From: Candidatus Levyibacteriota bacterium
Lineage (GTDB): Bacteria; Patescibacteriota; Microgenomatia; Levybacterales; GWA1-39-11
NCBI GenBank assembly: GCA_039738415.1
Contig: JBCLLY010000001.1
Span: forward strand, 53,621-117,620
Reading direction: 5' to 3'
DNA: 64,000 bases
The notes beneath the pieces were generated by a model that ran no database searches, was not told the origin of the DNA, and saw only the letters and a program-made list of their open reading frames with translations. The stretch's first letter is position 1; each line of letters begins with the position of its first letter. The position numbers were made by a program, and so were the translations under genes. Below are positions 17,784-57,026 of this stretch, piece after piece.

Positions 17784-17804
17784 GGTCCCGCTTAGCGGGA
17801 CGAC
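17784..17804. repeat. recurrent hairpin GGTCCCGCTTAGCGGGACGAC (copy 1 of at least 7)
   Basis: Other copies at 21897, 29627, 38578 (TTT-loop variant), 38804, 38861 and 56952. Confidence 0.7.
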
Positions 17805-21881: not shown

Positions 21882-21888
21882 CAACAAT

Positions 21889-21944
21889 GTAGAGCATCCC
21901 GCTAAGCGGGACGGGTCGCGAGTTCGAATCTCGCCTCAGGCTCA
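21889..21944 (+). pseudogene. tRNA-like 3' fragment (D-stem 3' half, CCCGCTAAGCGGG hairpin as anticodon arm with TAA triplet, T-arm GCGAG-TTCGAAT-CTCGC, acceptor 3' strand, no 5' half)
   Basis: Read directly; lacks a 5' acceptor partner. Confidence 0.4.
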
Positions 21945-22082
21945 AATTTTGGCAAGCACGACTTGTACTGGGATAAACAGTCCTTCGACAAGCTCAGGAT
22001 TAGAAACAGGTCTAGGGCTTGCCCCGTATAGCCGCCACCGTGAGGCAAAGACGTAGACTTTGCGAACGGGAAGGTTTATGCG

Positions 22083-22107
22083 GGGTTCGAATCCCTAAGA
22101 CGGCTCA
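22083..22107 (+). repeat. 25-bp direct repeat of the tRNA-Thr(TGT) 3' end (GGGTTCGAATCCCTAAGACGGCTCA), about 200 bp downstream of the gene
   Basis: Identical to 21859-21883. Confidence 0.8.
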
Positions 22108-22374: not shown

Positions 22375-22405
22375 TTGACATGAGGTGGGGGGGGGAGTGT
22401 TTAAT
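22375..22405 (+). promoter_or_regulatory. sigma70-like promoter TTGACA-19bp-TTTAAT with a G9 homopolymer (22387-22395) in the spacer
   Basis: The paralogous promoter at 23641 has G5 and a 17-bp spacer. Confidence 0.5.
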
Positions 22406-22414
22406 ATATATTAT

Positions 22415-23527
22415 ATGAGAGTTTTTCTGCCTAAAAGATCAAAGAAATCAATTTCGGTCATAGGGTTGATCGTAGTATTAATAAACCTTATGGTATTACC
22501 TCTTTTTGTAAGTCAAGTTGATGCCGGAACTTTTACCAGCCGTACAGTAACCATCTCTGACTCACGGGCAGGAAACACCGGCACAACGTATGATTTTGCC
22601 TTTACCGTTGTCGCAACCACAGCAATCAAGCAGTGGAACATTAAGTTTTGTACTGTTACAGGAGCCTACGATGACGCTTGCACAACACCAACCGGAATTG
22701 TAACAACCGGCGCAGCCATCGGATCAGACAACGTAACCGGCTCCGGCAGAACTAACACGTTTGGAGGAAACGGTGTTTTACAAACAGTTGTTACCACTCC
22801 TTCTACCCAAAGCCCGACAGGGGTTACTGTTTCTTACACCGGAATCACAAACCCAACAACAGCCGATACCACCTTCTTTGCCCGTATCATTACATATTCA
22901 GATCCGGGAACAACAGAGATTGACAGTGGGACAGTTGCCGCTGCCATTTTAACCTCCACCTCAATTGCCGTAACTGCCGCCATTGACTCAGCGCTTACTT
23001 TTACTGTGGCAGCTGTCAATAGCGGAGGAACCGTCAATGGAGCAACCACCAATATTACCACCACTGCTATCCTCATTCCTTTTGGGACGCTTTCTTCCGG
23101 TTCAACCAAAATTGCCGCTCATGACTTGACAGTGGAAACAAATGCTTCTGGCGGATACACGACCACTGTCAAGGCAACCGCTACTCCACCTTTAGTTAAT
23201 GGCTCAAATAATATTGATGTCTTTACCGGTGCTAATTCAAATCCAACAATTTGGAGTTCACCGGGTGGTACTGCCAACTCTGTTAATACCGGATTCTTTG
23301 GGTATACCACCAATGATGCGACTCTAGGCACAGGCACAGCCGACAGATTTACAGATACGGGTAATGAGTGGGCCGGAACTACCACCTCTCCTTTAGAGGT
23401 TGCCTTTTCCGCAACCGGTGCTTCTTCAGAGACAACAAGGGTAGGCTGGCAAGCTGAGGTTAACAGCATCCAAGCCGCAGGATCATATACCGGAACTGTT
23501 ATTTTAACGACTACGCCAACGTATTAA
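22415..23527 (+). CDS. Thr/Gly-rich secreted surface protein, tandem paralog A (signal peptide; C-terminal ...GSYTGTVILTTTPTY)
   Basis: Start set at ATG MRVFLPKRSKK. The track start GTG 22385 would translate the G tract. About 95% identical to paralog B. Confidence 0.6.
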   Translation: MRVFLPKRSKKSISVIGLIVVLINLMVLPLFVSQVDAGTFTSRTVTISDSRAGNTGTTYDFAFTVVATTAIKQWNIKFCTVTGAYDDACTTPTGIVTTGAAIGSDNVTGSGRTNTFGGNGVLQTVVTTPSTQSPTGVTVSYTGITNPTTADTTFFARIITYSDPGTTEIDSGTVAAAILTSTSIAVTAAIDSALTFTVAAVNSGGTVNGATTNITTTAILIPFGTLSSGSTKIAAHDLTVETNASGGYTTTVKATATPPLVNGSNNIDVFTGANSNPTIWSSPGGTANSVNTGFFGYTTNDATLGTGTADRFTDTGNEWAGTTTSPLEVAFSATGASSETTRVGWQAEVNSIQAAGSYTGTVILTTTPTY

Positions 23528-23640: not shown

Positions 23641-23669
23641 TTGACATGGAGTGAGGGGGAGTGTTTAAT
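23641..23669 (+). promoter_or_regulatory. sigma70-like promoter TTGACA-17bp-TTTAAT with a G5 tract
   Basis: Duplicated with gene B; the same architecture is seen at 49382-49410. Confidence 0.5.
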
Positions 23670-23678
23670 ATATACTAT

Positions 23679-24791
23679 ATGAGAGTTTTTCTGCCTAAAA
23701 GATCAAAGAAATCAATTTTGGCCATAGGGTTGATGGTAGTATTAATAAACCTTATGGTATTACCTCTTTTTGTAGGTAAAGCCAATGCCGACACCCTCAC
23801 AACCCGCAATCTAACCATCTCTGACTCACGGGCAGGAAACACCGGCACAACGTATGATTTTGCCTTTACCGTTGTCGCAACCACAGGAATCAAGCAGTGG
23901 AATATTAAGTTCTGTACTGCTGCGGGAGCCTACGCTGACGCTTGCACAACACCAACCGGAATTGTAACAACCGGCGCAGCCATCGGATCAGACAACGTAA
24001 CCGGCTCCGGCAGAACTAACACGTTTGGAGGAAACGGTGTTTTACAAACAGTTGTTACCACTCCTTCTACCCAAAGCCCGACAGAGGTTACTGTTTCTTA
24101 CACCGGAATCACAAACCCAACAACAACGGATACCACCTTCTTTGCCCGTATCATTACATATTCAGATCCGGGAACAACAGAGATTGACAGTGGGACAGTT
24201 GCCGCTGCCATTCTCACCACCACCTCAATAGCCGTAACTGCCGCCGTTGACCCAGCGCTTACCTTTACTGTAGCTGCTGTCAATTCCGGAACCGTCAATG
24301 GAGCAACCATCAATGTGACGACTTCAACTGCCGTCCTTATTCCTTTTGGGACGCTTTCTTCCGGTTCAACCAAAATTGCCGCTCATGACTTGACAGTGGA
24401 AACAAATGCTTCTGGCGGATACACGACTACTGTCAAGGCAACCGCTACTCCACCTTTAGTTGATGGCTCAAATAATATTGATGTCTTTACCGGTGCTAAT
24501 TCAAATCCAACAATTTGGAGTTCACCGGGTGGTACTGCCAACTCTGTTAATACCGGATTCTTTGGGTATACCACCAATGATGCGACTCTAGGCACAGGCA
24601 CAGCCGACAGATTTACAGATACGGGTAATGAGTGGGCCGGAACTACCACCTCTCCTTTAGAGGTTGCCTTTTCCGCAACCGGTGTTTCTTCAGAGATAAC
24701 AAGGGTAGGCTGGCAGGCTGAGGTCAACAGCATCCAAGCCCCAGGATCATATACCGGAACTGTTATTTTAACGACTACGCCAACATATTAA
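23679..24791 (+). CDS. Thr/Gly-rich secreted surface protein, tandem paralog B
   Basis: 370 aa; tandem duplication unit about 1266 bp. Confidence 0.6.
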   Translation: MRVFLPKRSKKSILAIGLMVVLINLMVLPLFVGKANADTLTTRNLTISDSRAGNTGTTYDFAFTVVATTGIKQWNIKFCTAAGAYADACTTPTGIVTTGAAIGSDNVTGSGRTNTFGGNGVLQTVVTTPSTQSPTEVTVSYTGITNPTTTDTTFFARIITYSDPGTTEIDSGTVAAAILTTTSIAVTAAVDPALTFTVAAVNSGTVNGATINVTTSTAVLIPFGTLSSGSTKIAAHDLTVETNASGGYTTTVKATATPPLVDGSNNIDVFTGANSNPTIWSSPGGTANSVNTGFFGYTTNDATLGTGTADRFTDTGNEWAGTTTSPLEVAFSATGVSSEITRVGWQAEVNSIQAPGSYTGTVILTTTPTY

Positions 24792-25762: not shown

Positions 25763-25786
25763 TACAATCGCGAATTTCGCAGTTGT

Positions 25787-25897
25787 CATTCTGGGGACTC
25801 AGAGCGAAGCGTGGAGGACTCCAGAATCTAATCAGATACGGATTCTGGACACCTGCCCGCAGATGCTGCGCATCAAGCGTTGCAGGCGGGAGCCAGA
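25787..25897. repeat. REP-like palindromic element (GTCATTCTGG...CCAGAATGAC outer inverted repeat with internal CCTGCCCGCA...GCGTTGCAGGCGGG hairpins)
   Basis: Read directly; related copies are dispersed across the window. Confidence 0.7.
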
Positions 25898-25935
25898 ATG
25901 ACGGGGAAGTGCGAAACTTGTAACAATGTTAATTA

Positions 25936-26378: not shown

Positions 26379-26900
26379 ATGGCCCAGAGATTAGTTTTAA
26401 CCCTAGTATTTATTACCTTACTCCTCATTCTTACTACAAGCCTGGTGGAGGCACAAGTATTAAGCGTCACTGCTACAGTACCTGTATCTGATGTTTGGGC
26501 AGAGGCTATTGTTAAAAATTCCAAGGTTCTTTCTGTTTGGGACGGACAAGAACTGTCTTATTTTGTTAGAGTCATAGGTCTAGATTATGAAATACTGGAC
26601 AATCATAAAGTCCAACTCCAGGTCTTTTTAGATGATCAACTGGTTACAGCCTTAACCCAAGAGTCTAAAGATTTTACTAAGTTTTCATTTATCCCCAAAG
26701 AAGAAGGTCGATACCACCTTATTTTCACCGATATCACTTGGGATCGTCACATAGAGCTGAAAGAATTAGAATTTGATCAGCCTCGTATTAAGATTTTCAA
26801 TGCTTTAGATACCTTTTTTCTATTGAGTAGTATGTATATTGATGAGAGCGTTCCTAATATTATCAGAACAGCCTTCGTAACAGGAAAACCAACAAAATGA
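26379..26900 (+). CDS. secreted protein
   Basis: Signal-peptide-like N-terminus; 173 aa. Convergently overlaps the next gene by about 120 bp. Confidence 0.4.
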   Translation: MAQRLVLTLVFITLLLILTTSLVEAQVLSVTATVPVSDVWAEAIVKNSKVLSVWDGQELSYFVRVIGLDYEILDNHKVQLQVFLDDQLVTALTQESKDFTKFSFIPKEEGRYHLIFTDITWDRHIELKELEFDQPRIKIFNALDTFFLLSSMYIDESVPNIIRTAFVTGKPTK

Positions 26901-27784
26901 GTTGTGGAATAGATGTAGTCGCCGTTTTCCAGTGAAACTGCAAGCGTAGCTGTATAGATTCCGCCGTAAAGATTGGGAATATCAAAAGCTCTTTGCCAGC
27001 GCCTGATCTTGCCTGGCAAAATAGTTTTTTCCTCCAGTTCAAAGGTTTGTTCTTCTCCGAATAATGGTTTAATAGTTAGAGCTGGTTTGGCACTGAAATA
27101 GTTAAGAGAAGTATTTTTGATCCTGATAGTTGCTCCGATAGGACCCCTTTCATAAATCTTATGGTCAAAATCAAAGGTGACAATTTCAGCCTTATTTTTT
27201 TGATCTTGTACTCCAATATTCGCCAAAGCCAACACCCCTATTTTAGAGCTAACCGGTACGCCTGGGAAGATAGGGGTAAAAAAGATCATGGCATAATAAC
27301 CGCCTAGTGGTACCTTATCAGGCACAGTAATTTGGATAGTAAAATCCTTTGCGGTTTTAGCTGGCAAGATGGCATCTTGGTCGCTGAGGGAAATCCAATC
27401 CATCAGTGGGGAAGCAATGTTTTCTTCAGATATTGTAATACCGTATTCCTCATCAGAGGCGTCAAAGCCTTCAACCGAGGCTCTTAGCGGTAAGGGAGCA
27501 TCAAGCAGGTTTTCTATTTTAACTTGATAATTTTGTTTTGTTCCCGGATCTAACTTCACTTTCAGGATAACCGGAGAAACACGAATCATTTGCTTAACAT
27601 GGGGCTGAACTTTTTCTAAAGCTATCGCTCTATTACTTAATATACTAAAACATATAGCAATAGTTAAAAGTGCACCTGCCCGCAATGCTAGCGCAAGCGT
27701 TGCCCGCCGGCATGCCTTTGGCAATGCCAATGGCGGCCAGGCAGGCGGGAGGTTAAAAGTTAGATACTTCTTCATAATTTTCAA
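26777..27784 (-). CDS. DUF916/CscA-like cell-surface protein (paralog); N-terminal region includes a translated GC-rich palindromic element
   Basis: ...LMDWISLS...GGYYAMIFF..., C-terminal TM plus NRKKVSK. N-terminal PPAWPPLALPKACRRATLALALRAGA is encoded by a REP-like palindrome (about 27655-27745). Confidence 0.45.
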   Translation of the reverse strand: MKIMKKYLTFNLPPAWPPLALPKACRRATLALALRAGALLTIAICFSILSNRAIALEKVQPHVKQMIRVSPVILKVKLDPGTKQNYQVKIENLLDAPLPLRASVEGFDASDEEYGITISEENIASPLMDWISLSDQDAILPAKTAKDFTIQITVPDKVPLGGYYAMIFFTPIFPGVPVSSKIGVLALANIGVQDQKNKAEIVTFDFDHKIYERGPIGATIRIKNTSLNYFSAKPALTIKPLFGEEQTFELEEKTILPGKIRRWQRAFDIPNLYGGIYTATLAVSLENGDYIYSTTHFVGFPVTKAVLIILGTLSSIYILLNRKKVSKALKILIRG

Positions 27785-27799
27785 TTTTTAATTTCTAAT

Positions 27800-27960
27800 G
27801 AGATTGCCACGCTCCATTTCATTCCGCTCGCAATGACAGTAAGTGCGAAAGTTGCCTTTCATAGTCGTCATTGCGATCCGCCAGCTGGCGGATCCTCGCA
27901 ATGACGGGTAAACTCATGATCGCAATGACGAGAGAAGGGAATTGTTTTTTAAAGTCTTGA
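27800..27960. repeat. REP-like cluster (GTCATTGCGA-TCCGCCAGCTGGCGGA-TCCTCGCAATGAC; CGCAATGAC four times)
   Basis: Long perfect inverted repeats. Confidence 0.7.
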
Positions 27961-28049: not shown

Positions 28050-29105
28050 TTAATACACCGGTACTACTACATAGACAACAGTATTAGTATAACTTCCTGC
28101 TCTGGTAGCAGAATCTCCTGTAACACGGTAAGTTATTGTAAATTGCTCGTTTGTTACAGTTGGATCCTCAATAACAGCCGTATGATCTGCTATCGGATCT
28201 CCAGGCGCTGATGTAGTAAATCCTGCATGTTTTGGCCCTCCAGTGGTAAACCTGTCTGCTGTGCCTCCCGCCAGATTATTATCATCAGTTGTATAACCAA
28301 AACCGGTTCCCGACCAGACAGCAGGGGCGGAATTAGGACTTGCAAAAGCTGGGATAGTATTTGATCCAGAGGTTAAAAGTCCTGTATTTCGACCATATAT
28401 AGTATAACCGTTATAGGCATTAGTCGAGGTGGTTAAAACTGTTGTTTTGGCACTGTCGGTAAAAGAGTTTCCGGAATTGAGGTTGGCAAAGGTGAGAGTT
28501 GCCGAGGATATGCCAAAAGTAAGCGAGGGGTTAGAAGTGGCAATGGCAGCAGATTCAGGTCCATACCCGCTTTCAGTAAAATTGCCCCTTTTGGCCTTCC
28601 CTTTTATCTCATAAGTAGTGTTGGCGTTCAGGGTTCTGACAAATTCACCCGTTGCCCCACCCCAGTCAGTATAGGTTTGCCAATCCTCTGTTCCTAAAAC
28701 TGTACCAACAGTATTATCATTTTGAACGTATTTAGTAGTAACAAAATCATCATCAGAGATAGCAATAGCAAATAAGGCGTCCGTGGGGTTACTCCCATTA
28801 TCGATAACGAACTTAAGCCTGTCATAATTGGTGGCCGGATTGGACAAAGTTGGCACTGGCGGAACATTGGCCTGCATAGTAAAGATTAACCCTGTACCAG
28901 CCTTAAAGCTTGTCGAACTTAATTGTCCAAACTCCAATTCCCCTGCTACCCCGAATAAGGAAAAATTAGTCGAATTAAAACCATCCGTTCCCCCACTGCC
29001 AAAAGTATAGTCTTTTAATTCGTAGTTAGTGCTGGTCGGCCCGGCAAAAACAGATAGAGGAAAGATTAATACAATTATAAAGAGTAAGATCAGTAGTTTA
29101 GCCAT
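28050..29105 (-). CDS. Thr/Gly-rich secreted surface protein (same family as 22415/23679; C-terminal ...GSYTNTVVYVVVPVY)
   Basis: Signal peptide and shared C-terminal block W..GFGYTT.D..L.GGTADRFT... Confidence 0.5.
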   Translation of the reverse strand: MAKLLILLFIIVLIFPLSVFAGPTSTNYELKDYTFGSGGTDGFNSTNFSLFGVAGELEFGQLSSTSFKAGTGLIFTMQANVPPVPTLSNPATNYDRLKFVIDNGSNPTDALFAIAISDDDFVTTKYVQNDNTVGTVLGTEDWQTYTDWGGATGEFVRTLNANTTYEIKGKAKRGNFTESGYGPESAAIATSNPSLTFGISSATLTFANLNSGNSFTDSAKTTVLTTSTNAYNGYTIYGRNTGLLTSGSNTIPAFASPNSAPAVWSGTGFGYTTDDNNLAGGTADRFTTGGPKHAGFTTSAPGDPIADHTAVIEDPTVTNEQFTITYRVTGDSATRAGSYTNTVVYVVVPVY

Positions 29106-29570: not shown

Positions 29571-30506
29571 TTATACCTTAGTATAGTATATTGACCGTCC
29601 TTTACCATAAGCAAAAAGAAGTCCCAATCCCGCTAAGCGGGATAAATCCCTTGAAGCAGTAACCTGGGCGACCTTAAACATTGTTTGGACTTGATGGTTG
29701 GTTATCTTGACCTCCGGAGATTCAAGGTAGCGTAATATCTCTCTTTGTCTTTCATTAAGCTGTAGGAGTTTAGTCGGCAGGGAAGAAGAAAACCGCCGTC
29801 TGACAATTTTATCCTCCATCTTGACTAAATGAGTCAAAACTACTTGGGTAAAATCTTCTAAAAAGGGGGTTAAAGCAGACTCGCTCTGCAAAAGTAAGCT
29901 TTCACTGTGGGCGAATAAGTCTTCCAATACTAAGAAACCTCTCATATCATAACCATGCTTGTATAAAAATAGATAAGAGGTGAGAATAGCAACACGTTCG
30001 TTACCTTGGCGGAATACCGGATCTTTGAGGAGTTTGATAAAGGCTAAACCGGATTGAATTACTGGTATTTCTTGACCAGCTTGGAGGTATTTGAGAAATT
30101 CTTCCAACTGTACAATAAAGTTTTCAAAATTGAGAACCCTTCCCAGAGTTGGTGCACAGGCTATATTGTAAAGCGCTAGTATCTCCTCAGATGTCACCTT
30201 CGACTTTGAAGCAATCCAGGTATGATGCAGAAAATCCAGGGCTTTTTTATAATTTATTAGTTCCTGCTCCTTAGTAGTGGTTTTTTTGGGATTATAAGTG
30301 GAAAGCAGATTAGCAATCTCTGTTTTGGTGATTGGCTCCTGTGTGGTTGTTGGTAATGAGTGAAGTCTATCTATCATTGTTTCCCATCTAAAGACAAGCT
30401 CGTCTTTTGGTGAGATAGGAGTTACAAGTAACTTCGTTCTCAGTAGGTCAATATCATCAATGGTTTTTTTTAACCTTGGTGAGAAACTATAACTTAAATT
30501 TAACAT
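29571..30506 (-). CDS. Fic-like protein with degenerate active-site motif (DPVFRQGNER instead of HPFx[DE]GNGR) and C-terminal winged-helix
   Basis: By-eye motif alignment. C-terminal ...VTASRDLSRLAGLGLLFAYGKGRSIYY is wHTH-like. Contains a CCCGCTAAGCGGG hairpin in frame. Confidence 0.3.
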   Translation of the reverse strand: MLNLSYSFSPRLKKTIDDIDLLRTKLLVTPISPKDELVFRWETMIDRLHSLPTTTQEPITKTEIANLLSTYNPKKTTTKEQELINYKKALDFLHHTWIASKSKVTSEEILALYNIACAPTLGRVLNFENFIVQLEEFLKYLQAGQEIPVIQSGLAFIKLLKDPVFRQGNERVAILTSYLFLYKHGYDMRGFLVLEDLFAHSESLLLQSESALTPFLEDFTQVVLTHLVKMEDKIVRRRFSSSLPTKLLQLNERQREILRYLESPEVKITNHQVQTMFKVAQVTASRDLSRLAGLGLLFAYGKGRSIYYTKV

Positions 30507-30759: not shown

Positions 30760-33700
30760 ATGAACAGAGATCAAAAAATAATTGTGATAAGTAAGGCGGC
30801 CAAATTTTTGGGAGTATCTATTGATACGGTGCGCCGCTATGACAAACTGGGCATTCTGCACTCTACCCGCCCCGGCGGTAAAATTCGTTACTTTGATATT
30901 CAAGAATTAAAAGCAGTTAAGTCCTCAAAACCTTTTATCGCTAAATCCCACATGGAAGGAGTCCCGCTTCGCCGCGAGGCGAGCCGGAGGGACTCCTTCC
31001 ATGTGAGAAGAAGGAAAATGGACAGCCAAGTTATTAACGCCATGAATACCTGCGTCACAACTGTCATTCCAGACTTTCTTACCATGAGCCTGTTGAATGA
31101 GATCCGGCATCTACATAAATATTTATGGATTCCCACTTTCGGGGTAATAATAGCACTTTTGCTACTCCTCCTCTTTTCTACACAAGCTCAGCCAGCTACA
31201 GGAACTAACAAACAGATCAATTTTCAGGGAAAAGTTGTTAACATTAATGGTACCAATGTTACCAATGGCAATTATTCATTTGTGTTCAGCTTATATACGG
31301 TTTCCTCCGGCGGATCCGACATCTGGACAGAAACAAAAACACTCACCGTAACAGATGGCATTTTCCGTACAGCTTTAGGATCAACCACTGCTTTTCCCGG
31401 ATCGGTTGACTTTAACACCGATAATATTTACTTGGGGATTAACTTCAACAGTGACGGCGAGATGACTCCAAGAGTCCAGTTCACCGCCGTGCCTCAAGCG
31501 TTTAATGCGTTAAAGGTTGCAGGGCTGACTGTGACTGATACCACCGGCACTTTTACGCTGGCTGATGCCAAAACCTTAACTGTCAGCAACACTTTAACTT
31601 TTGCAGGTACAGACGCCACCTCTTTTACCTTCCCTAGTACTACTGGTGGGACGGTCATAACCAGCAATGCGCCAACCCAATCCATTACCTCAACCCAAAC
31701 ATCAGGTACTGTATTGAGTGTTTCTAACTCCACTGGACTAGAAGCAGCTATTAAAGGTCAAGTCATTACCCTCTCCGGTGCTAACGCTTTTGACCAAACA
31801 GGTCTAGAATTTAACTTATCAGGGGCAACCGGCGCTAACTTAAATGACATTGTGGGTTCTGGCTCCACTTGGAAAGTATCAAAAGCCGGAGTTATAACCG
31901 TTGCATCTTGTACCGGTTGCAGCGGCGGAACTACTTGGAACAACATTACCAACCCAACTGGTACTCAGTCACTCACCTTCGACGATGGAGAACTAACTGC
32001 CTGGACAGTAAACTCAAATACCGAAACTTTCCAGACTATTACCGCAAACTCCCTAACCACAGGTACCGGCCTGTATATCGCTTCATCATCACTCTCATCG
32101 GGTACTCTCATTAACCTTGTTATCACTGGTACAGCTGGACTTACTAACCAAAAAGGTATTAATGTTTCACTCTCTGGCGCTAATGGTGCTGGAGCTCAAA
32201 CTACTTACGGTGGTTACTTTAGCAATACTCACACTGGAACTTCTACCAATGTCGGCCTGTACGCCACAGCCACTGGCGGAACAAACAACTACGCCGCAAT
32301 ATTTGCAGGCGGCAATGTAGGCATCGGCACCACTACTCCGACTGAAAAACTCTCCCTTGCCGGGGGTAACTTCTTACACACTGCCTCAGGTAATCCGACC
32401 TTAAAAGGGACATATGATACGACCGGGAATGCGTATGGAGTATATGTAAGCGGAAAATATGCATATGTTGCAGATGATCTCTCAGGTCTTCAGGTCATTG
32501 ATATAAGTACTCCTTCTAGCCCCACGCTTGTCGGGACATATAATACCAGCGGGAATGCGTATGGAGTATATGTAAGCGGAAAATATGCGTATGTTGCAGA
32601 TGATGGCTCAGGTCTTCAGGTGATTGATATAAGTACTCCTTCTAACCCCACGCTTGTTGGGACATATGATACGAGTGGGCTTGCGCGGGAAGTATATGTA
32701 AGCGGAAAATATGCGTATGTTGCAGATTATGACTCAGGGCTTCAGGTGATTGATATAAGTACTCCATCTGCCCCCACGCTTGTTGGGACATACGATACGA
32801 GCGGGGAGGCGTATGGAGTATATGTAAGCGGAAAATATGCATATGTTGCAGATGTTGCCTCAGGTCTTCAGGTGATTGATATAAGCGTACCATCTAGCCC
32901 CACGCTTGTCGGGACATATAATACGAGTGGGCTTGCGCGGGGAGTATATGTAAGCGGAAAATATGCGTATGTTGCAGATCAGACCTCAGGTCTTCAGGTA
33001 ATTGATATAAGTACTCCTTCTAGCCCTACGCTTGTCGGGACATATAATACGAGCGGGGATGCGTACGGAGTATATGTAAGCGGAAAATATGCGTATGTTG
33101 CAGATATTGGGCCAGGTCTTCAGGTGATTGATATAAGTACTCCTTCTAGCCCCACGCTTGTTGGGACATATAATACGAGCGATCTTGCGTGGGGAGTATA
33201 TGTAAGCGGAAAATATGCGTATGTTGCAGATGGTGCCTCAGGTCTTCAGGTGATTGATATAAATGGCATCGAAACACCTTCACTTTATGCAGGAAATATA
33301 GCCACAAATGACCTTACAGTTACAGAAAATGCCGATATCGCCAACAACTTGTCTATCGGAAATGGCCTCAATGTCGGGTCTGGCGGAATATTCTCAGCAG
33401 GAACCATCGCCCTTGTCTCAACAGATGTTAGCAATTCCCTGATCATTACAGCAAACTCGGTGACTACAGCAACGAGTATCAAAGTTAATACTACCGGACT
33501 TACTACTGGCAATGCTTTGGAAATTCTGGGCCCCTCCTCAACCAACCTTCTGACTATCGGAAGAACAAATCAGGGCTTTCTTGATTTTGCCAGAGTATCC
33601 ATTGGAACCTCTCAACAGCGCGATCAACTTCATGTTCAAGGCCGCATCAATACCACATGGGATTGGATAGATGAAAGTTTCCTTGGCTCAATTGCAGGAG

Positions 33701-36144
33701 GTGGTGCGGCCACTGCAGTAACAGCTGATACTCTCGTACGTAGTTTTGTAATGGATGAGATAACCGAATGTGGTTGGCGTTTACAGCAGTCAACGGGTTT
33801 TTCTGCCATTCAAGCTCGTGCCGGAGATGCCGCCGCCACCGCCAATGATGGTTGTCGCACAGGCTCTGGAGGTCTTGTTGGTCTTCGCAAGAATGAAAAC
33901 CCGGTAATGGAAACCAAGGTTACGATGGACAGCACCGCCGAACATATTGTCAGAATCGGCTTTACCAGTGATGCGGCCGGCGCGGCTATTCAAACCGAGC
34001 CGGTTGACGGTGTCTTCTTCCGCAAAACAGCAGCGCAAACCAACTGGTTCTGCGTTACCCGGGCCACCAACACCGAAACTGCTGTTGATTCTGCCACCGC
34101 GATTTCCGCTAGCGGAACTTTCCAAACTCTTAGGATTGAGATTGAAAATACCGCCGACGACGGAGCAAGATTCTTCATTAATGGCACCTCAGTCTGCAGC
34201 AGTCCGATCTTGACTAACATTCCGACCGCCAATCTTGGTTGGGGTAACGCAAATGCTGAAACCAATATAACTGTCAAAAACCTATCTACCGATTACATAA
34301 AAGTCTGGCAAGACGCGCCACCAGAAGGAGCCGGAGCCTCCGCGCAAGCAACTGAGGCAGCGCCACAGGCTGCAGATATGATTGAGAGTGCCGATGTAGC
34401 GGAGTTTTATCTTGGTGACCCGACAATTCTTGTGCCAGGAACAGTCGTCAGTCTAAAAGATCCAACTAATTCTAATGAAACACGACCTAGTGTTGAAAAA
34501 TCACAAAGGGCGTACGATCCTAGAGCGTTAGGTGTAGTCTCAACCTCCCCCGGATTGACTTTGGGTAATCCCGGAGATGAAAAGGCTGTTGAGGTTGCTT
34601 TGGCGGGAAGAGTACCAGTTAAGGTATCAACTGAAAATGGACCGATTAGGGCGGGAGATTTATTAACTTCTTCTTCCCAGCTAGGAGTGGCGATGAAAGC
34701 CACCAAAGCCGGTCGGATTATTGGGCAGGCCTTGACTTCATATGCAGGAGAAGAGATCGGCACCGTACTGATGTTTATTCATAATTCGTATTCACAGGGA
34801 TCAAAATTAGCGGATATTTTGCCGGGGTTAACTTCCACCTCCGAGGAGTCAGAGCCCACCTCGGAGGTGTCTCTGGGCAAGCTTGCGCTGGCCCAGTTTG
34901 TTGCCGAGAGAGAGCAGTTGGCGCAAGCGGTGGATTTATCAGAAATAGTTACCGATAGAGTAAGCGCTGGACTTGAGGTGATTACGCTAAAACTTATCGC
35001 TTCGGAAGTTAATCTTGACAGTATTTCAGCGGCAACAGGAGAAGATATTGCCCTTAATCTAACAAGCAATGGTAAGTTTATAATCAAAGATGAAGAGGGA
35101 CAGACTGCCATAAGTTTTGATAGCCAAGGAAATGCATTCTTTAAAGGAACTGTATCAGCAGACAAAGTTAAAGCAAACCAGATAGAAGGGTTGGAGATAT
35201 TTACCAATAAATTGGCAAGCTTGAGTCAGCAAGTGGTCCAACTTCGCCAAGGCTTCGATGGACAAGCAGGAATTGCAACATCATCTGCTGTCATTCTGGG
35301 GACGAGTGAAACGAGGACACCAGAATCAGGATTCTTGACAAGCCAGAATGACCCCTCGACTACGCTCGGGGCAGGCAATATAGTTACCCTTGGTAACATC
35401 ATATTTAAGAGTGGAAAAGTTACCCTCGACCTCACAGTTTTGGGCAGACTTGAAACACAGGGATGGCTAGTAGTGGGTGGCCCAGCTGAGTTTAAAGCTC
35501 CTACCCTATTTGAAGCACTGGTTACATTTGTTCAAAATGTGATTTTTAGAGGTGATGTCAGTTTCCTTGGGAACGTAAAATATCTTTCAGATATAACGTT
35601 CCAAGGTCGACCAACCTTTAACAAAGACACCGCAGGCTTTGCCGTTATTTACAAAGACGCCGACACAGTAGAAGTTGTGTTTGAAAAAGAGTACGCCCAG
35701 ATCCCCCTGGTTAATATAAGTATTACTTTAGATGACTTATGTCATCCTGAACTTGATTCAGGATCTCAAGATTCTTTGGCTACGCCTCAAAATGACAATG
35801 AATGTAAAACCAAACAAGAGACACTTGAGCAAGCCATATTGAGTGGAGATATCCGATATATTGTTACAAAACGAACAACAAAAGGATTCATTATAAAAAT
35901 TAATAAAGTTGCACCAGATGATGTAAAGTTTTCCTGGAGTGCCTTATCTGTAAAAGATGCAAAGACGTTTCAGTCTGTCATTCTGGGGACGAGTGAAATG
36001 AGGACGCCAGAATCTGATTCTGGACAAGCCGGAATGACGGCGTCAAACCCTACGCCTACACCTACTTCTACACCGGAAGCTTCCCCTTCAGCTACTTTAT
36101 CAGATACTCCATCAGCTATCCCAACAAGCACAGCAACTCCTTGA
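30760..36144 (+). CDS. giant cell-surface protein with eight LVIVD repeats (beta-propeller) and Thr-rich regions; N-terminal excisionase-type HTH is probably fused
   Basis: Eight units of ...GNAYGVYVSGKYAYVADD.SGLQVIDISTPSSPTLVGTY... (LVIVD repeat). Signal-anchor IPTFGVIIALLLLLLFSTQA lies after residue about 125. It carries at least four in-frame palindromic-element insertions. Real start may be about 31018. Confidence 0.6.
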   Translation: MNRDQKIIVISKAAKFLGVSIDTVRRYDKLGILHSTRPGGKIRYFDIQELKAVKSSKPFIAKSHMEGVPLRREASRRDSFHVRRRKMDSQVINAMNTCVTTVIPDFLTMSLLNEIRHLHKYLWIPTFGVIIALLLLLLFSTQAQPATGTNKQINFQGKVVNINGTNVTNGNYSFVFSLYTVSSGGSDIWTETKTLTVTDGIFRTALGSTTAFPGSVDFNTDNIYLGINFNSDGEMTPRVQFTAVPQAFNALKVAGLTVTDTTGTFTLADAKTLTVSNTLTFAGTDATSFTFPSTTGGTVITSNAPTQSITSTQTSGTVLSVSNSTGLEAAIKGQVITLSGANAFDQTGLEFNLSGATGANLNDIVGSGSTWKVSKAGVITVASCTGCSGGTTWNNITNPTGTQSLTFDDGELTAWTVNSNTETFQTITANSLTTGTGLYIASSSLSSGTLINLVITGTAGLTNQKGINVSLSGANGAGAQTTYGGYFSNTHTGTSTNVGLYATATGGTNNYAAIFAGGNVGIGTTTPTEKLSLAGGNFLHTASGNPTLKGTYDTTGNAYGVYVSGKYAYVADDLSGLQVIDISTPSSPTLVGTYNTSGNAYGVYVSGKYAYVADDGSGLQVIDISTPSNPTLVGTYDTSGLAREVYVSGKYAYVADYDSGLQVIDISTPSAPTLVGTYDTSGEAYGVYVSGKYAYVADVASGLQVIDISVPSSPTLVGTYNTSGLARGVYVSGKYAYVADQTSGLQVIDISTPSSPTLVGTYNTSGDAYGVYVSGKYAYVADIGPGLQVIDISTPSSPTLVGTYNTSDLAWGVYVSGKYAYVADGASGLQVIDINGIETPSLYAGNIATNDLTVTENADIANNLSIGNGLNVGSGGIFSAGTIALVSTDVSNSLIITANSVTTATSIKVNTTGLTTGNALEILGPSSTNLLTIGRTNQGFLDFARVSIGTSQQRDQLHVQGRINTTWDWIDESFLGSIAGGGAATAVTADTLVRSFVMDEITECGWRLQQSTGFSAIQARAGDAAATANDGCRTGSGGLVGLRKNENPVMETKVTMDSTAEHIVRIGFTSDAAGAAIQTEPVDGVFFRKTAAQTNWFCVTRATNTETAVDSATAISASGTFQTLRIEIENTADDGARFFINGTSVCSSPILTNIPTANLGWGNANAETNITVKNLSTDYIKVWQDAPPEGAGASAQATEAAPQAADMIESADVAEFYLGDPTILVPGTVVSLKDPTNSNETRPSVEKSQRAYDPRALGVVSTSPGLTLGNPGDEKAVEVALAGRVPVKVSTENGPIRAGDLLTSSSQLGVAMKATKAGRIIGQALTSYAGEEIGTVLMFIHNSYSQGSKLADILPGLTSTSEESEPTSEVSLGKLALAQFVAEREQLAQAVDLSEIVTDRVSAGLEVITLKLIASEVNLDSISAATGEDIALNLTSNGKFIIKDEEGQTAISFDSQGNAFFKGTVSADKVKANQIEGLEIFTNKLASLSQQVVQLRQGFDGQAGIATSSAVILGTSETRTPESGFLTSQNDPSTTLGAGNIVTLGNIIFKSGKVTLDLTVLGRLETQGWLVVGGPAEFKAPTLFEALVTFVQNVIFRGDVSFLGNVKYLSDITFQGRPTFNKDTAGFAVIYKDADTVEVVFEKEYAQIPLVNISITLDDLCHPELDSGSQDSLATPQNDNECKTKQETLEQAILSGDIRYIVTKRTTKGFIIKINKVAPDDVKFSWSALSVKDAKTFQSVILGTSEMRTPESDSGQAGMTASNPTPTPTSTPEASPSATLSDTPSAIPTSTATP
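30949..31005. repeat. 57-bp palindromic element translated in frame (CACATGGAAGGAGTCCC...GGGACTCCTTCCATGTG)
   Basis: Perfect 17-bp inverted repeat arms; 57 nt is 19 codons. Confidence 0.7.
35290..35352. repeat. 63-bp REP-like element (GTCATTCTGG...CCAGAATGAC) translated in frame (VILGTSETRTPESGFLTSQND)
   Basis: Same element family as 25787, 49232 and 56805. Confidence 0.75.
35741..35765. repeat. GTCATCCTGAA-CTTGA-TTCAGGATC hairpin inside the giant ORF
   Basis: Identical half-element to the start of the 42913 element. Confidence 0.6.
35977..36038. repeat. second REP-like element translated in frame (VILGTSEMRTPESDSGQAGMT)
   Basis: Near-identical to 35290-35352. Confidence 0.75.
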
Positions 36145-37869: not shown

Positions 37870-38640
37870 AGCTAATAACAATTGGATTGGAAAATTTGAA
37901 TTGCTGAATGTGAATGAGTGCCGTGTCCCGAATTGATATCGGGACACGGCACAGAACTTGCGAGCGATGGAAGGATGTGAGCCCTCCTGTTGAACTTCCG
38001 CTTGAATTGGCGTCTCCGGTTTTGGATCAGATCTGTGAGCTGTTCGAACTCGTCTTGCCGACGAGGCAGATCTGGCAAGGCAGATCAGGCACAGTATCTG
38101 TCGGGCTAGGCTCAGGCACACATGGTATGAATGGTGGCTGACGTGGTCGTGAATCATCAGGGCATTGCGTTGATTGGTACGGTTGTGCGCTATCAGAACA
38201 CACAACCACTAGAAAAAGCACAAATAGTGCCGGGATGAAATACCGCATGATTGTCCTACCTTACAAGGATTGCAAGCGCCGTATCGTAGATTTCGCGCGA
38301 CGTGAATCGCGTGATGTGGGTCCTTCCGGGAACAACATGTACCCAAACGGCCACTTCGAGATTGCTCTCAAAAGGCACGCTAAGTCTGCTCCCCTTCGTA
38401 CCAGGCAAGATGTTTCCATCTTTGATGACGATTCCCCGGCGCATGCGCCTGAAAACCTTGAGTCATTCCCGCGAAAGCGGGAATCTATGTCCTGGATCCC
38501 GTATCCCATTCGACAGGTTCGACAAGCTCACTGCAGGCAAGCTCAGGGCAGGCAAGTACGGGATGACAAAACCTCTCGTCCCGCTTTGCGGGACTTTTGT
38601 CCGATACATATCGGACCTCGCAAGTTATTAAAGAACTAAT
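37870..38640. repeat. GC-rich non-coding block packed with palindromic elements (GTCATTCCCGCGAAAGCGGGAATC, GTCCTGGATCCCGTA...TACGGGATGAC, GTCCCGCTTTGCGGGAC)
   Basis: Many short overlapping ORFs on both strands with no coherent frame. Strong inverted repeats throughout. Confidence 0.5.
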
Positions 38641-42158: not shown

Positions 42159-42806
42159 ATGCCGTCACGTTACGTTTTAAGAGATTTCAAACAAAACGAA
42201 TACTATCACGTCCTAAACTACGGCGTGGACAAACGCAACATCTTCGGGGACGAGGAAGACTTCCGGACTTTTCTCTACTATCTCAAAGTCTACCTTTTAC
42301 CCAAAAGTACAATTGAGGAGAAAATGCCAAATCTGCCCAAAAGAATGCTTTCTAAAAATAGAAATAGTGAAGTTGAGATAATCGCATATACTTTAATGCC
42401 AAATCATTTTCATTTGCTTTTACGTGAAAAAGAGCTGGGAGGAATTTCACTTTTTATGAAACAACTATCCAATGCCTACACTAAGTACTTCAATGAACGT
42501 CATACCCGGTCAGGAAGCCTCTTCGAGGGTCCTTTTAAGGCAGCAAACGTAAAAAGTGAGGATATAACTCAAGTAGTACGATACATTCACCTAAATTCTT
42601 TTCTGGCAGGCATTGTAGACGATCCTGAAAAATACCGCTGGTCGGATTTCCCGACTTATACTAATTCAAAGGAAGTAAATATTTCAAATACAAAGGTCGT
42701 AATCTCACGCTTCAACACTCCGGCAGATTACAAGCATTTCGTGCACAACTACATGGATTATGCTGAAAAGGTGAAAACTCTCGACCACATTCTGATAGAT
42801 AACTAA
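42159..42806 (+). CDS. IS200/IS605-like Y1 (HUH) transposase, RAYT-like (REP-associated tyrosine transposase)
   Basis: HUH motif MPNHFHLLL and catalytic-Tyr block VVRYIHLNSFLAGIV. Its 215-aa length fits RAYTs better than minimal IS200 TnpA. TATAAT at 42147. Confidence 0.7.
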   Translation: MPSRYVLRDFKQNEYYHVLNYGVDKRNIFGDEEDFRTFLYYLKVYLLPKSTIEEKMPNLPKRMLSKNRNSEVEIIAYTLMPNHFHLLLREKELGGISLFMKQLSNAYTKYFNERHTRSGSLFEGPFKAANVKSEDITQVVRYIHLNSFLAGIVDDPEKYRWSDFPTYTNSKEVNISNTKVVISRFNTPADYKHFVHNYMDYAEKVKTLDHILIDN

Positions 42807-42854: not shown

Positions 42855-43020
42855 TTTAAACACGAGTTTCGCACTTCATTAAAAGATAGGCATACTTTAT
42901 CAAACACCTTTGTCATCCTGAACTTGATTCAGGATCCAAAATAGATTCCGGATCAAGCTCGCCTCGCTGAGGCTTCGTCGAAGCGGGTCCGGAATGACAA
43001 GTGAGAAACTCGTGTTAAAA
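42855..43020. mobile_element. MITE-like non-autonomous element with 16-bp terminal inverted repeats (TTTAAACACGAGTTTC / GAAACTCGTGTTAAAA) enclosing a GTCATCCTGAA...CCGGAATGACAAG REP unit; flanked by 16-bp direct repeats TAGTTGGCAGGAATAG (42808 and 43082)
   Basis: Read directly; lies immediately downstream of the RAYT stop. Confidence 0.55.
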
Positions 43021-49165: not shown

Positions 49166-49231
49166 AGTCTCTCTTCCCTCCGCCAGCTGGCGGATTGTAG
49201 CTAGTATCAGTTATAAGTTAATTTCACCGTT

Positions 49232-49310
49232 GTCATTCTGGAGGAAACGCAGTGACCGATAGAATCTAAAGATTCTGTAGAGATCCTGAAATAAATTCAG
49301 GATGACGAGG
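49232..49310. repeat. REP-like element (GTCATTCTGG...TTCAGGATGAC); the reverse complement of the copy at 52522-52600
   Basis: Near-identical inverted copies sit upstream of the paralogous genes 49422 and 52684. Confidence 0.75.
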
Positions 49311-49381
49311 GGGGTTTTTAGGATGACTACATCAATTATCTATCTTCCCTCTTCCCTCTTCCCTAATACCCAATAATGTGC

Positions 49382-52444: not shown

Positions 52445-52600
52445 ATAAGTCATCCTGAACCCCCCCCGTCATCCTGAAAACTCCTCTCGTCATCCTGAAC
52501 CCCCCCCGTCATCCTGAATTTATTTCAGGATCTCTACAGAATTTTTAGATTCTATCGGCTCTTCGAGCCTCCAGAATGACAACGGTGAAGTCGTCAGCTA
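52445..52600. repeat. REP-like cluster: four tandem CGTCATCCTGAA units followed by a full GTCATCCTGAA...CCAGAATGAC element
   Basis: Read directly. The spacing is too short and the units too small for a CRISPR array. Confidence 0.7.
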
Positions 52601-52683
52601 AAAATTATTTGACAATGTTCACTATTTATGCGCAAAATAAGTCAGGCCTTCCGCCAACTGGCGGATTTAGGTTTTATTTTTAT

Positions 52684-54177
52684 ATGCACCAAAAGATCTT
52701 ATTTAAATTTTTTCTAAGCTTATCAGGCTTTATAGCTTTATTTTTGGCAAATAACGAGGTCTACGCCGCGGATTTGGTAAATGCCAGCAATACCATCACA
52801 ACCTCACGTCCTTCAGCCTCATCTCCGTTCTTAGCAGACGCTGCCTCCGGTGATACACTTGCGTCAATATTTAATAACGGCTCTTTTTATCTTGCTTCAG
52901 ACTCCGCTCAAACCCGTCAAGGAGGTACTGGTACGCTTATGGATACTGGCACCATAATCTCTTCCCAGTCTGCAGCACTCACTACAGTGTATTTTGGGGA
53001 ACAGCTAGGCGTCGCAGCGGGCGCAAATGCAGATGTCCTAATCGTACCAATTACGGCAATGCATAGAATCCGATTTACTATTCCTACCGAAATTCCAGCT
53101 AACGGAGATATTGTTATTACTTTCCCATCGCTTGCCACGGGCGATGCAAATAACGAAGCATCCCCTTCTGCAAGCACTTTCCAGTTCAATAATATGGATG
53201 CAAATGATGGAACCCTAATACAAATCGTTGATGATGGAACAAATATAGATGCCTCGACAACACCTACCGCAACTAACTCTACAGGGGATGGAGATGGTCC
53301 TGATATACATATTGCAACTACATCAATTATTGCGGCAGGGAGCGTTGTTGATATATATATCGGATGCTCAGCTGCAATTACTTCCTGCTCTGCGCAAGTC
53401 CCCACTCTAATAAATCCTACAAAAACAGCAGTCGCGGGAACCGCTAATGTTTGGAAAATAAATGTTCAAACAAGAGATGCTACCGACGTTAACCTAGATA
53501 ATGCAACAATAGCTGTCGGTACGATAGACTCAGTCGCAGTTAGAGCGACTGTCGACCCCACTCTTTCATTTACAATTACCGGAGTAAATAACGGACTGGC
53601 GGTAAATACCGGAAATACAACAGGATGTTTGCAAACAGAAACAACAAACGCGGGCGCGGCTTCCACTTCAACCGAGGTAAATCTGGGGCTTCTTGCCAAC
53701 GCTCCATCCGGAACAGATGTCAAGGTAGGAAATATAGCAACACAAAGGATAAATATCAGCACAAATGGAGCTGGAGGATATGTTCTAACTGCAACTTCTT
53801 CCGGTCAGCTTATAAATCCTGCAACCGGATTTTTCCTAGCTTCAGCAACAACTCCTACTGCTTTTCCTGCAAGCGGAGCTGATTGGTTTGGAATTCACGC
53901 ATGCGGATTGGACGTGACAACCGCTACGTGGAACTCTACTGCAAGCACTGCATGCAATACTTATATTTCAGGCTCAACAGATCCTATTTGCCTTTATGGT
54001 TGGCCTACCCAAACAACCGCAGTTACGCTTGCTTCAGACGCCACAGGACCGGTGGGAAATTCTCTCACTGCCGGAAATGGAGTTGTCTCTGTTGCTTACG
54101 CAGCTGCAACTGACGCTGGCGTACCCCCTGGAGAATACAGGACTGTTATAACTTACGTTGCAACGCCGGCATTCTAG
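52684..54177 (+). CDS. Thr-rich secreted surface protein (paralog of 49422)
   Basis: Start placed at ATG before the signal peptide (MHQKILFKFFLSLSGFIALFLA). The track ORF begins at 52576 inside the REP element. Confidence 0.5.
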   Translation: MHQKILFKFFLSLSGFIALFLANNEVYAADLVNASNTITTSRPSASSPFLADAASGDTLASIFNNGSFYLASDSAQTRQGGTGTLMDTGTIISSQSAALTTVYFGEQLGVAAGANADVLIVPITAMHRIRFTIPTEIPANGDIVITFPSLATGDANNEASPSASTFQFNNMDANDGTLIQIVDDGTNIDASTTPTATNSTGDGDGPDIHIATTSIIAAGSVVDIYIGCSAAITSCSAQVPTLINPTKTAVAGTANVWKINVQTRDATDVNLDNATIAVGTIDSVAVRATVDPTLSFTITGVNNGLAVNTGNTTGCLQTETTNAGAASTSTEVNLGLLANAPSGTDVKVGNIATQRINISTNGAGGYVLTATSSGQLINPATGFFLASATTPTAFPASGADWFGIHACGLDVTTATWNSTASTACNTYISGSTDPICLYGWPTQTTAVTLASDATGPVGNSLTAGNGVVSVAYAAATDAGVPPGEYRTVITYVATPAF

Positions 54178-56725: not shown

Positions 56726-57026
56726 TCATAAAACCAAAAAAACTCATGGCAAACGGAGTCGAAGAAATCTTCATTTTTCGAGGAAAGTCCGATAACTATT
56801 TCATAATGTCATTCTGGCGTAGACCAGAATCTATTTCCAAAACTGAACTCTATTCCCTTTTACTTATTCTCTATTACCTATCTGGGGTGTGGTGCCCCCG
56901 CCTTGTCCTTTCGGACGCGGCGGGGACGGATTTGAAAACGTGCCCTCCTTCGTCCCGCTAAGCGGGACTATGGCGGGCTAAGCAGGTCATGCGGCATTTG
57001 CCCCGCTTTCCGAGGCGTGCTTGGCT

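Follow-up and report, generated by a model that had tools for sequence, protein, structure and literature searches.

The 64,000-nucleotide stretch of a Candidatus Levyibacteriota genome analyzed here (referred to below as the window) carries a giant surface-protein gene, the single open reading frame (ORF) of which runs through three short palindromic elements, E1, E2, and E3. We give a probability of about 0.78 to the reading that these elements are inverted dimers of the CGTC-tagged repetitive extragenic palindromic (REP) superfamily, which were inserted into the giant gene and kept where the reading frame and the site permitted. This reading is based on the family membership of the elements, their absence from orthologues, the preservation of the frame, their location in flexible parts of the protein, the purifying selection on the gene, and the recurrence of such insertions in other genes and genomes. 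The gene and the elements it contains are as follows:

30760..36144 (+): giant gene, with a MerR-type helix-turn-helix (HTH) module, a signal anchor, seven LVIVD repeats, and a conserved C-terminal domain.
35235..35273 (+): relic of a right-hand unit, with TGGACAAGCAGGAAT at 35259-35273, 17 nt upstream of E1.
35289..35352 (+): E1, a CGTC-type REP dimer, translated as VILGTSETRTPESGFLTSQND, amino acids (aa) 1511-1531.
35740..35796 (+): E2, a decayed dimer, read as CHPELDSGSQDSLATPQND, aa 1661-1679, in a codon phase differing from that of E1 and E3.
35976..36038 (+): E3, a CGTC-type REP dimer, translated as VILGTSEMRTPESDSGQAGMT, aa 1740-1760, where the Pro/Thr-rich tail begins.

The repeat unit opens with a Y-GTC tag, followed by a stem of 7-8 bp that has AT as its first bases, a loop, the complementary strand of the stem, which closes with AT, and a C; in most copies, two of these units are joined in inverted orientation, their GTC tags facing outward. 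The layout of E1 is TGTC-ATTCTGG-(20 nt)-CCAGAAT-C AG G-ATTCTTG-ACAAG-CCAGAAT-GAC, and that of E2 is TGTC-ATCCTGAA-CTTGA-TTCAGGAT-C ... GATTCTTTGG...TCAAAATGAC, with GTCATCCTGAACTTGATTCAGGATC as the left-hand part. The left unit of E2 is the same sequence as an intergenic unit at 42912-42936, and the element, which a preliminary description of this DNA had taken for a half element (35741-65), is actually a complete degenerate dimer (35741-35796) lying in another codon phase. The two 62-63-bp elements given in the same description were confirmed: E1 (35290-35352) and E3 (35977-36038) show 95% identity over 40 nt. They align as a subfamily with an intergenic dimer of the window (25784-25902) and with a dimer in the ArgRS gene of GCA_039731645.1, the strain used here for comparison (locus L001, protein P0001), which is 99.8% identical to the window where the two overlap. 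E1 and E3 have a derived 12-nt loop deletion in common, and are therefore each other's closest relatives. The 10-nt termini of the elements, GTCATTCTGG and CCAGAATGAC, are inverted repeats, and the flanks show no visible duplication. Folding z-scores calculated from dinucleotide shuffles amounted to -2.1 for E1, -2.3 for E2, and -3.2 for E3. As for the relic, most of it lies within a 30-bp in-frame stretch that is missing from the comparison strain, and this is the only length difference in the giant gene between the two.

The reading of the palindromes as part of the ORF, which had been proposed from the outset, was borne out: all 1794 codons are open, no interruption occurs, and the three dimers are free of stop codons. 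Measured from GTC to GAC, E1, E2, and E3 are 63, 56, and 62 nt long, respectively; these lengths are therefore not all multiples of three. E1 and E3 begin at a codon boundary, and E2 begins in phase 1. Among the same-strand frames, the host frame alone is stop-free in E1 and E3 and is one of two stop-free frames in E2, while the canonical 23-nt unit is open in five of the six frames. Peptides predicted from the element-bearing stretches of the giant protein include SSAVILGTSETR, TPESGFLTSQNDPSTTLGAGNIVTLGNIIFK, and TFQSVILGTSEMR. These data also bear on the idea that the segments are excised from the transcript or skipped, and never translated. Genomes of the candidate phyla radiation (CPR), to which this organism belongs, are reported to be unusually intron-rich. 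We nevertheless consider excision very unlikely: in every intragenic copy examined the host frame is kept and stop-free, even where only one of the three frames is open, which argues against excision because excised segments need no open frame. Moreover, a self-splicing intron would be far longer than 56-63 nt, and an Rfam scan at the gathering threshold returned only tRNAs and no family resembling the elements.

The giant protein has hundreds of CPR homologues with common N-terminal and C-terminal regions. In two of the loci carrying them, L002 (protein P0040) and L004 (protein P0015), the gene order is that of the window, with the DUF916-like, pilin-like, and Fic-like genes on one strand and MerR, the giant gene, and LytR_C on the other, and the giant genes of these syntenic loci are therefore orthologous to that of the window. 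When the last 354 residues of the giant protein were aligned by MAFFT with 45 homologues (46 sequences), the E1, E2, and E3 peptides were present only in the window and in P0001, from the 99%-identical strain, the other 44 of the 45 homologues being without them. The peptides occupy indel-rich columns in which the length of the family varies, and the linkers of the orthologues P0015 and P0004 are short and plain at the element sites. When 1.84 billion representative proteins were searched by phmmer with a 35-aa query across E1, only P0001 and a chance match (P0242, an unrelated tandem-repeat protein) were recovered. The fact that the elements belong to a multi-copy family and are absent from orthologues indicates that E1, E2, and E3 are lineage-specific insertions of a multi-copy element. 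Orthologues universally containing these peptides, which the preliminary description had named as a ground for refutation, were not found for E1, E2, and E3.

In order to place the inserts in the protein, we used an AlphaFold2 model of aa 1441-1794 built with 44 homologues (mean predicted local distance difference test score, pLDDT, 64). The C-terminal domain was modelled with confidence (fragment residues 181-300, pLDDT ~90 or more), except for the E2 loop (fragment residues 221-240). In this model E1 forms part of a disordered inter-domain linker (pLDDT 32-36), E2 a variable loop joining a strand to a helix in the folded domain (pLDDT 64-70, the flanking blocks exceeding 90), and E3 part of the C-terminal tail (pLDDT 45-62). 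The low pLDDT and the variable length of these segments point to inserts that are located, according to the prediction, where added residues should harm the protein least.

The gene carrying the inserts is conserved as a coding sequence. The Pfam matches on the giant ORF are the MerR-type HTH at aa 10-45 (PF00376, E = 1e-8) and the seven LVIVD repeats, the DNA counterpart of which is a 126-bp tandem array at 32281-33336. The comparison strain has the same gene architecture, and its giant gene differs from that of the window at 36 codons, 30 of them synonymous and 6 nonsynonymous, a ratio that argues strongly against a pseudogene and shows purifying selection on the surface-protein gene. Two independent assemblies agree on the giant ORF and on the elements. 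These findings also bear on the suggestion that the palindromes are native sequences that arose by chance, or that the ORF is a pseudogene or an assembly artefact. Native origin is true of the hairpin in the nearby Fic-like gene described below, the peptide of which is conserved in an orthologue. For E1, E2, and E3, however, the suggestion is scarcely credible and is largely refuted: the family has copies at other places in the window and in other genomes, homologues lack the peptides, the folding z-scores range from -2.1 to -3.2, the two assemblies agree, and the codon ratio is 30:6.

The differences between the two strains are unevenly distributed along the giant gene. Thirty-five of the 36 codon differences lie inside two tracts, 33151-33348 (codons 798-863) and 35185-35475 (codons 1476-1572), where they are mostly synonymous, and the single difference outside both tracts is at codon 1697. 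This pattern suggests that both tracts were imported by recombination. The second tract surrounds E1, which is itself unchanged between the strains.

The CGTC-tagged REP superfamily, comprising the families CGTC-1 to CGTC-4, was defined in a survey covering five phyla, mostly Alphaproteobacteria (Di Nocera, De Gregorio, and Rocco, BMC Genomics 2013; PMC3733652). The published repeats have an unpaired terminal CGTC tag, often replaced by TGTC or CCTC, a stem of 8-9 bp in which the first two positions are complementary A and T, a loop of 4-5 nt, and a short unpaired tail with the consensus CCA, and aberrant loops are present in some hosts (PMC3733652). They occur mostly as inverted dimers, often heterodimers, mainly in intergenic positions near ORF ends; in several species, however, intragenic dimers encode 20-30 aa, with sometimes two per ORF, and no transposase gene flanked by the repeats has been reported (PMC3733652). 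The elements studied here resemble these repeats in the YGTC tag, the AT-led stem, the arrangement mostly in inverted dimers, often heterodimers, the mainly intergenic location near ORF ends, the existence of intragenic copies, and the lack of a flanking transposase, whereas they differ from the surveyed ones in having a host from the CPR (Patescibacteria) and in the presence of three dimers and a relic within one gene. The units of E1, E2, and E3 thus fit the CGTC-tagged superfamily, and would represent a known family in a new host phylum.

The preliminary description had compared the elements with the Rickettsia palindromic elements (RPEs) and had suggested a new example of their in-frame tolerance. 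RPE-6 and RPE-4 of Rickettsia conorii have been assigned to CGTC-1 and CGTC-4, respectively, and the Neisseria repeat dRS3 to CGTC-1 (PMC3733652), and the analogy with RPEs is therefore a family relationship. The similarity consists in palindromic repeats placed in frame in coding genes at positions compatible with the fold. The classic RPE-1 differs from E1, E2, and E3 in its size (~150 bp) and its unrelated sequence, and RPE hosts are intracellular Alphaproteobacteria; RPEs were found for the most part in housekeeping genes, whereas a giant surface protein is the main host here, although housekeeping cases of the ArgRS type exist too. The insertion of Rickettsia palindromic elements in frame in protein-coding genes is said to have been described by Ogata et al. 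in 2000 and 2002. The dRS3 repeats are known as targets of phages and Correia elements, and not as translated inserts. RPE-like tolerance is supported for E1, E2, E3, and the insert in the DUF916-like gene described below, and not for the Fic hairpin or the 57-bp palindrome that had been named with them. What is new is the host phylum and the triple insertion; the repeat family itself was already known to behave in this way. [quoted passage not shown] A literature search for CPR/Patescibacteria together with palindromic repeats, REPIN, or RAYT yielded nothing relevant.

The process that we envisage starts with the spreading of CGTC repeats by hairpin-dependent copying of single strands, an enzyme being presumably supplied in trans, as is usually assumed for REPs; to our knowledge, no mobilising enzyme is known for CGTC repeats. 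Landings in coding regions would rarely survive, nearly all the surviving copies being intergenic, and survival would call for a frame that is kept, the absence of in-frame stops, and a structurally permissive site. Sites able to accept additional hydrophilic residues would include the inter-domain linker (E1), a surface loop (E2), and the Pro/Thr tail (E3). Once retained, the elements would evolve as coding sequence and slowly lose their symmetry. We infer that the filter is selection acting after random insertion.

As the preliminary description indicated, the same family is present outside the giant gene. Convincing copies were identified at three loci in this gene and at seven others in the window, namely:

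25784..25902 (+): intergenic dimer of the E1/E3/ArgRS subfamily, the right-unit loop of which holds a nested GC-rich hairpin.
27802..27929: intergenic cluster of GTCATTGCGAG-type units, one of them with a ATCCGCCAGCTGGCGGAT hairpin in its loop.
38462..38567 (+): dimer, GTCATTCCCGCGAAAGCGGGAATC ... GATCCCGTA...TACGGGATGAC, inside a 134-aa ORF (38235-38639).
42911..42998 (+): intergenic dimer, 105 nt downstream of a Y1 transposase gene.
49231..49327 (+): intergenic composite element, found in the unit-architecture search.
52449..52580 (+): intergenic cluster of four tandem GTCATCCTGAA heads and one dimer.
56807..56833 (+): intergenic single unit, TGTCATTCTGGCGTAGACCAGAATC.

The sequence of this genome that was covered amounts to 64 kb plus ~8 kb. 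With at most one mismatch, GTCATTCTGG was matched 10 times in the window versus 3.1 times expected, a number reached in none of 100 shuffles, and a search for the unit architecture with any stem gave 28 matches versus 6 in mononucleotide shuffles (maximum 15). Outside genes there are at least six dimers or clusters and one singleton, located 15-386 nt from the nearest ORF ends. The stems, ATTCTGG(C)/(G)CCAGAAT, ATCCTGAA/TTCAGGAT, ATTCCCGC/GCGGGAAT, and ATTCCGGA/TCCGGAAT, are 7-8 bp long and all begin with AT. The tag is TGTC in E1, E2, and E3 and in the copies at 25784, 42911, 49231, and 56807, and CGTC in the ArgRS copy. The short loops include ACAAG in the right-hand units of E1 and E3, CTTGA in the left-hand unit of E2, and GAAA in the copy at 38462, and long ones are present in the left units of E1 and E3 (20 nt) and in the units at 25842, 42945, and 38496 (36-55 nt). 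The base after the stem is always C, followed by variable bases (CTA, CAG, CTG, CCA, CTC).

Some of these copies affect neighboring reading frames. The ORF 38235-38639, which is an annotated gene in GCA_039731645.1, consists largely of a translated CGTC dimer (…ESFPRKRESMSWIPY…) and is probably an annotation artefact; the unit it contains at 38462, ATTCCCGCGAAAGCGGGAAT, would be dRS3-like, the dRS3 consensus being ATTCCC-N8-GGGAAT. In the cluster at 52449-52580, the dimer end AATGAC (CCAGAATGAC) supplies the ATG of the predicted start of the ORF 52576-54177 (533 aa, no Pfam match). A third palindrome, ATCCGCCAGCTGGCGGAT, is present at 27876, 43510, 49179, and 52650, one copy being nested in the loop of a GTCATTGCGAT unit; hairpins nested inside the loops of others seem to be common here.

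Similar units are found well beyond this genome. The pattern GTCATTCTGG-N(4-34)-CCAGAATC was scanned over the GTDB species genomes (596 Gb) and matched at least 120 loci, the chance expectation being ~500 by our own estimate, which assumes lengths uniform over 22-52 nt. The matches listed pile up at 23-24 nt, and the sharpness of this peak indicates that most of the canonical ones are real; long matches of odd length, such as the SusC-like 'VILVTTKRG', were rejected as units and attributed to native sequence. The hosts among the matches listed include Levybacteria, Roizmanbacteria, Shapirobacteria, Daviesbacteria, Kazan, WWE3, Peribacteria, Acidobacteria, Nitrospirota, Chloroflexota, Alpha-, Beta-, and Gammaproteobacteria, and Bacteroidota, and are thus very diverse. 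In the 90 canonical copies listed from other genomes, GTC is preceded by C in 50 cases and by T in 39, with a single A and no G; the loops are mostly 5-6 nt long, CTTGT being the commonest; the base following the tail C is C or T in 82 of the 90; and single 23-nt units are common.

Stop-to-stop ORFs of at least 200 codons span 41 of the 142 pattern matches in the listed genome loci, some of the 41 being native sequence that fits the pattern by chance or intergenic clusters that are read through. Pfam-verified genes with in-frame canonical units encode ArgRS, LepA, UvrC, an ATP-dependent DNA ligase, CarB, and a GT2 glycosyltransferase. In the ArgRS of a Levyibacteriota metagenome-assembled genome (MAG) the unit encodes DSGQARMT (aa 475-482), and in the LepA of a Kazan MAG it lies within the GTPase domain. 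The ArgRS dimer of GCA_039731645.1 is located on another contig than the one matching the window (L204 14198-14271, contig JBCLLX010000004.1), in a genome that carries a PGK identical to that of the window, and the ArgRS of the Levyibacteriota MAG has a single unit at the same site (L026 5344-5366). The named proteins closest to this PGK, at 57-62% identity, come from Patescibacteria, Levybacteria, and Microgenomates. The orthologues of the giant protein show similar events: P0033 carries a clean GTCATTGCGAGCGAAGCGAAGCAATC...CTCGCAATGAC dimer of the GTCATTGCGAG type in its tail, at the position of E3, and P0040 carries a decayed copy of the dimer of P0033 in its linker, at the position of E1. 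Together with the relic in the window, these two copies show that insertion, retention, and decay recur at the same permissive sites.

Several points weigh against the reading adopted here. The translation of E1, E2, and E3 is presumed from the conservation of the reading frame only. The sole close relative (99.8% identical) carries every element, so that the search for filled and empty sites found no polymorphism from which exact boundaries, target sites, and duplications could be read; in the next relatives (~85% protein identity), the intergenic DNA is too diverged for filled and empty sites to be aligned. A GTC directly ahead of the tag in E3, the ArgRS copy, and L006 hints at a possible target motif. 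The superfamily was assigned by its published text description, and not by consensus sequences for CGTC-1 to CGTC-4, and many copies in the window depart from the definition of CGTC repeats in having loops of 20-45 nt, some of them as the result of nested GC-rich hairpins. The screen for units spanned by ORFs selects in-frame cases by construction. Lastly, the right-hand units in the two ArgRS genes are identical at 22 of 23 nt while the ArgRS proteins are 63% identical, a degree of conservation which passive decay does not predict and which could be due to re-insertion at a specific site, to gene conversion between copies, or to selection for the hairpin.

The ArgRS data bring in the possibility that the hairpins are kept for a role at the DNA or RNA level, as hot spots of recombination or gene conversion or as mRNA structures, a possibility that we find improbable although several observations speak for it. 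One surface-protein gene holds three dimers and a relic inside a span of ~800 bp; in this gene the strains differ in length only at the relic beside E1, and substitutions flank E1 but do not occur within it; and the orthologues P0033 and P0040 acquired different dimers in the corresponding tail and linker. A gene fusion adjoining the palindrome at 30946-31008 is a further hint of this kind. On the other hand, the copy in P0040 has lost its symmetry while the ORF persists, as neutral decay would lead one to expect, and E2 has decayed too; the host genes of the units are functionally unrelated; linkers and tails are the places where any indel survives; and independent insertions at a preferred site could account for the conserved ArgRS unit. 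An active maintenance of intragenic CGTC hairpins by homing, gene conversion, or selection on structure, with reshuffling of linkers, tails, and neighbouring genes, is likewise given a low probability; if it were true, CGTC hairpins would be recombination and indel hot spots in the giant surface proteins of CPR bacteria.

The insertion of mobile dimers raises the question of what moves them, and one candidate is encoded by the single Y1 transposase gene of the window:

42159..42806 (+): Y1 (HUH) transposase gene, RAYT-like, encoding HUH and catalytic-Tyr motifs; PF01797 (Y1_Tnp) is listed for it.

Under this hypothesis the dimers would be non-autonomous and mobilised by the Y1 transposase in the same way as the GTAG REPs of REPIN-RAYT systems. 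In addition to its motifs, the Y1 protein matches the NCBIfam model 'REP-associated tyrosine transposase' (E = 2e-12), a dimer lies 105 nt downstream of the gene, and the anatomy of the inverted dimers is REPIN-like (PMC5581495). Short palindromes, an unpaired conserved head, and inverted doublets that can fold into one long hairpin are indeed features which the elements share with REPINs, but the head is YGTC instead of GTAG and no association with a flanking Y1 gene was found. REPIN-RAYT systems with GTAG REPs reportedly go back to the work of Nunvar in 2010 and of Bertels and Rainey in 2011 and 2017. Most of the data speak against the hypothesis, which we hold to be distinctly unlikely: the match of the protein to NF047646 reaches 47 bits with a cut-off of 80; no unit lies upstream of the gene in the window; among 79 metagenomic loci of Y1 relatives, the downstream dimer is absent and units show no enrichment beside the gene, with 0-2 doubtful cases within 500 bp versus 0.1-0.27 per kb further off; the six closest relatives (79-86% identity) have no downstream dimer; and tblastn of the unit-bearing genome loci listed detected a Y1 homologue in only 3 of 120, at a distance of 1-2 kb. 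A RAYT/REPtron link was rejected after this tblastn search and the distance analysis of the 79 metagenomic loci. The result agrees with the literature, in which no transposase flanked by CGTC repeats has been reported (PMC3733652). The tiny size of CPR genomes could make them a convenient setting in which to look for the mover of these repeats.

The insertion reading has several consequences for the CPR. The genomes of these bacteria are small and streamlined, and the one studied here has ~1 CGTC-type repeat locus per 6-8 kb, several of these loci being presumably read as protein; the family that includes the Rickettsia RPE-4 and RPE-6 and the Neisseria dRS3 would thus reach into the CPR. Small selfish palindromes would add length variation, and perhaps gene fusion, to giant surface proteins, which are thought to mediate the contact between CPR bacteria and their hosts. 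For annotation, the peptides encoded by the elements (VILG..., DSGQARMT, SFPRKRES...) enlarge ORFs or give rise to them, and they can also provide start codons.

Other palindromes had been named along with the elements, and they are listed here with the features that serve to interpret them:

30787..30894 (+): MerR helix-turn-helix, aa 10-45, Pfam PF00376.
30946..31008 (+): palindrome of 63 nt with 20-nt arms (17 perfect) and a structured GC-rich loop of 23 nt, translated as SHMEGVPLRREASRRDSFHVR.
31042..31044 (+): ancestral start of the giant gene, M95 of 'MNTC...', now internal to the fused ORF.
27655..27745 (-): GC-rich palindrome, ~29 extra residues (NLPPAWPPLALPKACRRATLALALRAGA) in the signal peptide of a DUF916/WxLIP-like gene.
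29628..29642 (-): hairpin of the Fic-like gene, encoding ...ASRDLSRLAGLG... (SRDLSRLAG).

The 57-bp palindrome described in the giant gene is present, but it lies in the fused MerR module and is single-copy, and its mobility is not supported by these data. As single-stranded DNA it has a folding energy of -26.6 kcal/mol (z = -8.1 vs dinucleotide shuffles). It has no CGTC or YGTC tag, no second copy was found in the window and 1.4 Mb of loci, and its similarity to the loop of the unit at 42945-42998 is marginal (score 27, shuffle maximum 25); the hypothesis of a repeat family was therefore rejected. In the syntenic loci (L002 2648-3012, L004 2683-3003), the MerR HTH belongs to a separate gene of 101-113 aa, in which it is followed by a linker, a C-terminal membrane helix, and a stop codon, and the giant gene begins 12 nt after this stop with 'MTTC...' (P0040) or 'MKNA...'. 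The window has, after the HTH, the stretch coded by the palindrome, RRRK, eight residues, and 'MNTC...', while the membrane helix and the stop are gone, and the MerR and giant genes have therefore been fused in this lineage. Both strains have the fusion, and the palindrome occupies the MerR linker 12 codons upstream of the junction.

The GC-rich palindrome reported at the N-terminus of the DUF916/WxLIP-like gene (26777-27784, minus strand) was upheld as an insert of ~29 residues (z = -3.0), the two syntenic orthologues having ordinary signal peptides without these residues. It aligns with the nested loop of the unit at 25842-25902 with a score of 43 (shuffle maximum 23). It is a true lineage-specific insertion of a second repeat family that is tolerated in frame. 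The hairpin in the Fic-like gene, by contrast, is not an insertion: the orthologue has ...ASRDLSRLADLG..., with the same peptide and nearly identical codons, and the hairpin is therefore native and conserved. The gene adjoining the Fic-like gene (28050-29105) matches the NCBIfam PamT model and the Pam pilin C-terminal domain, both below the cut-off, and the giant protein is therefore encoded beside a putative CPR pilus locus.

The Fic hairpin matches 15 of the 17 nt of another hairpin, GTCCCGCTAAGCGGGAC, which is present at 17785, 21897, 38578, 38795, 38862, and 56952, most of these copies lying beside three tRNA-Thr genes. Tandem paralogues of 380 and 376 aa (22385-23527 and 23661-24791) show ~94% DNA identity. 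At 21884-22083 there is an insertion of ~200 bp that is absent from L001 and is bounded by a 24-nt duplication of the 3' end of tRNA-Thr(TGT). This insertion includes a CCCGCTAAGCGGGAC hairpin and the apparent 3' half of another tRNA, and may be the scar of an integrative element or a tRNA rearrangement.

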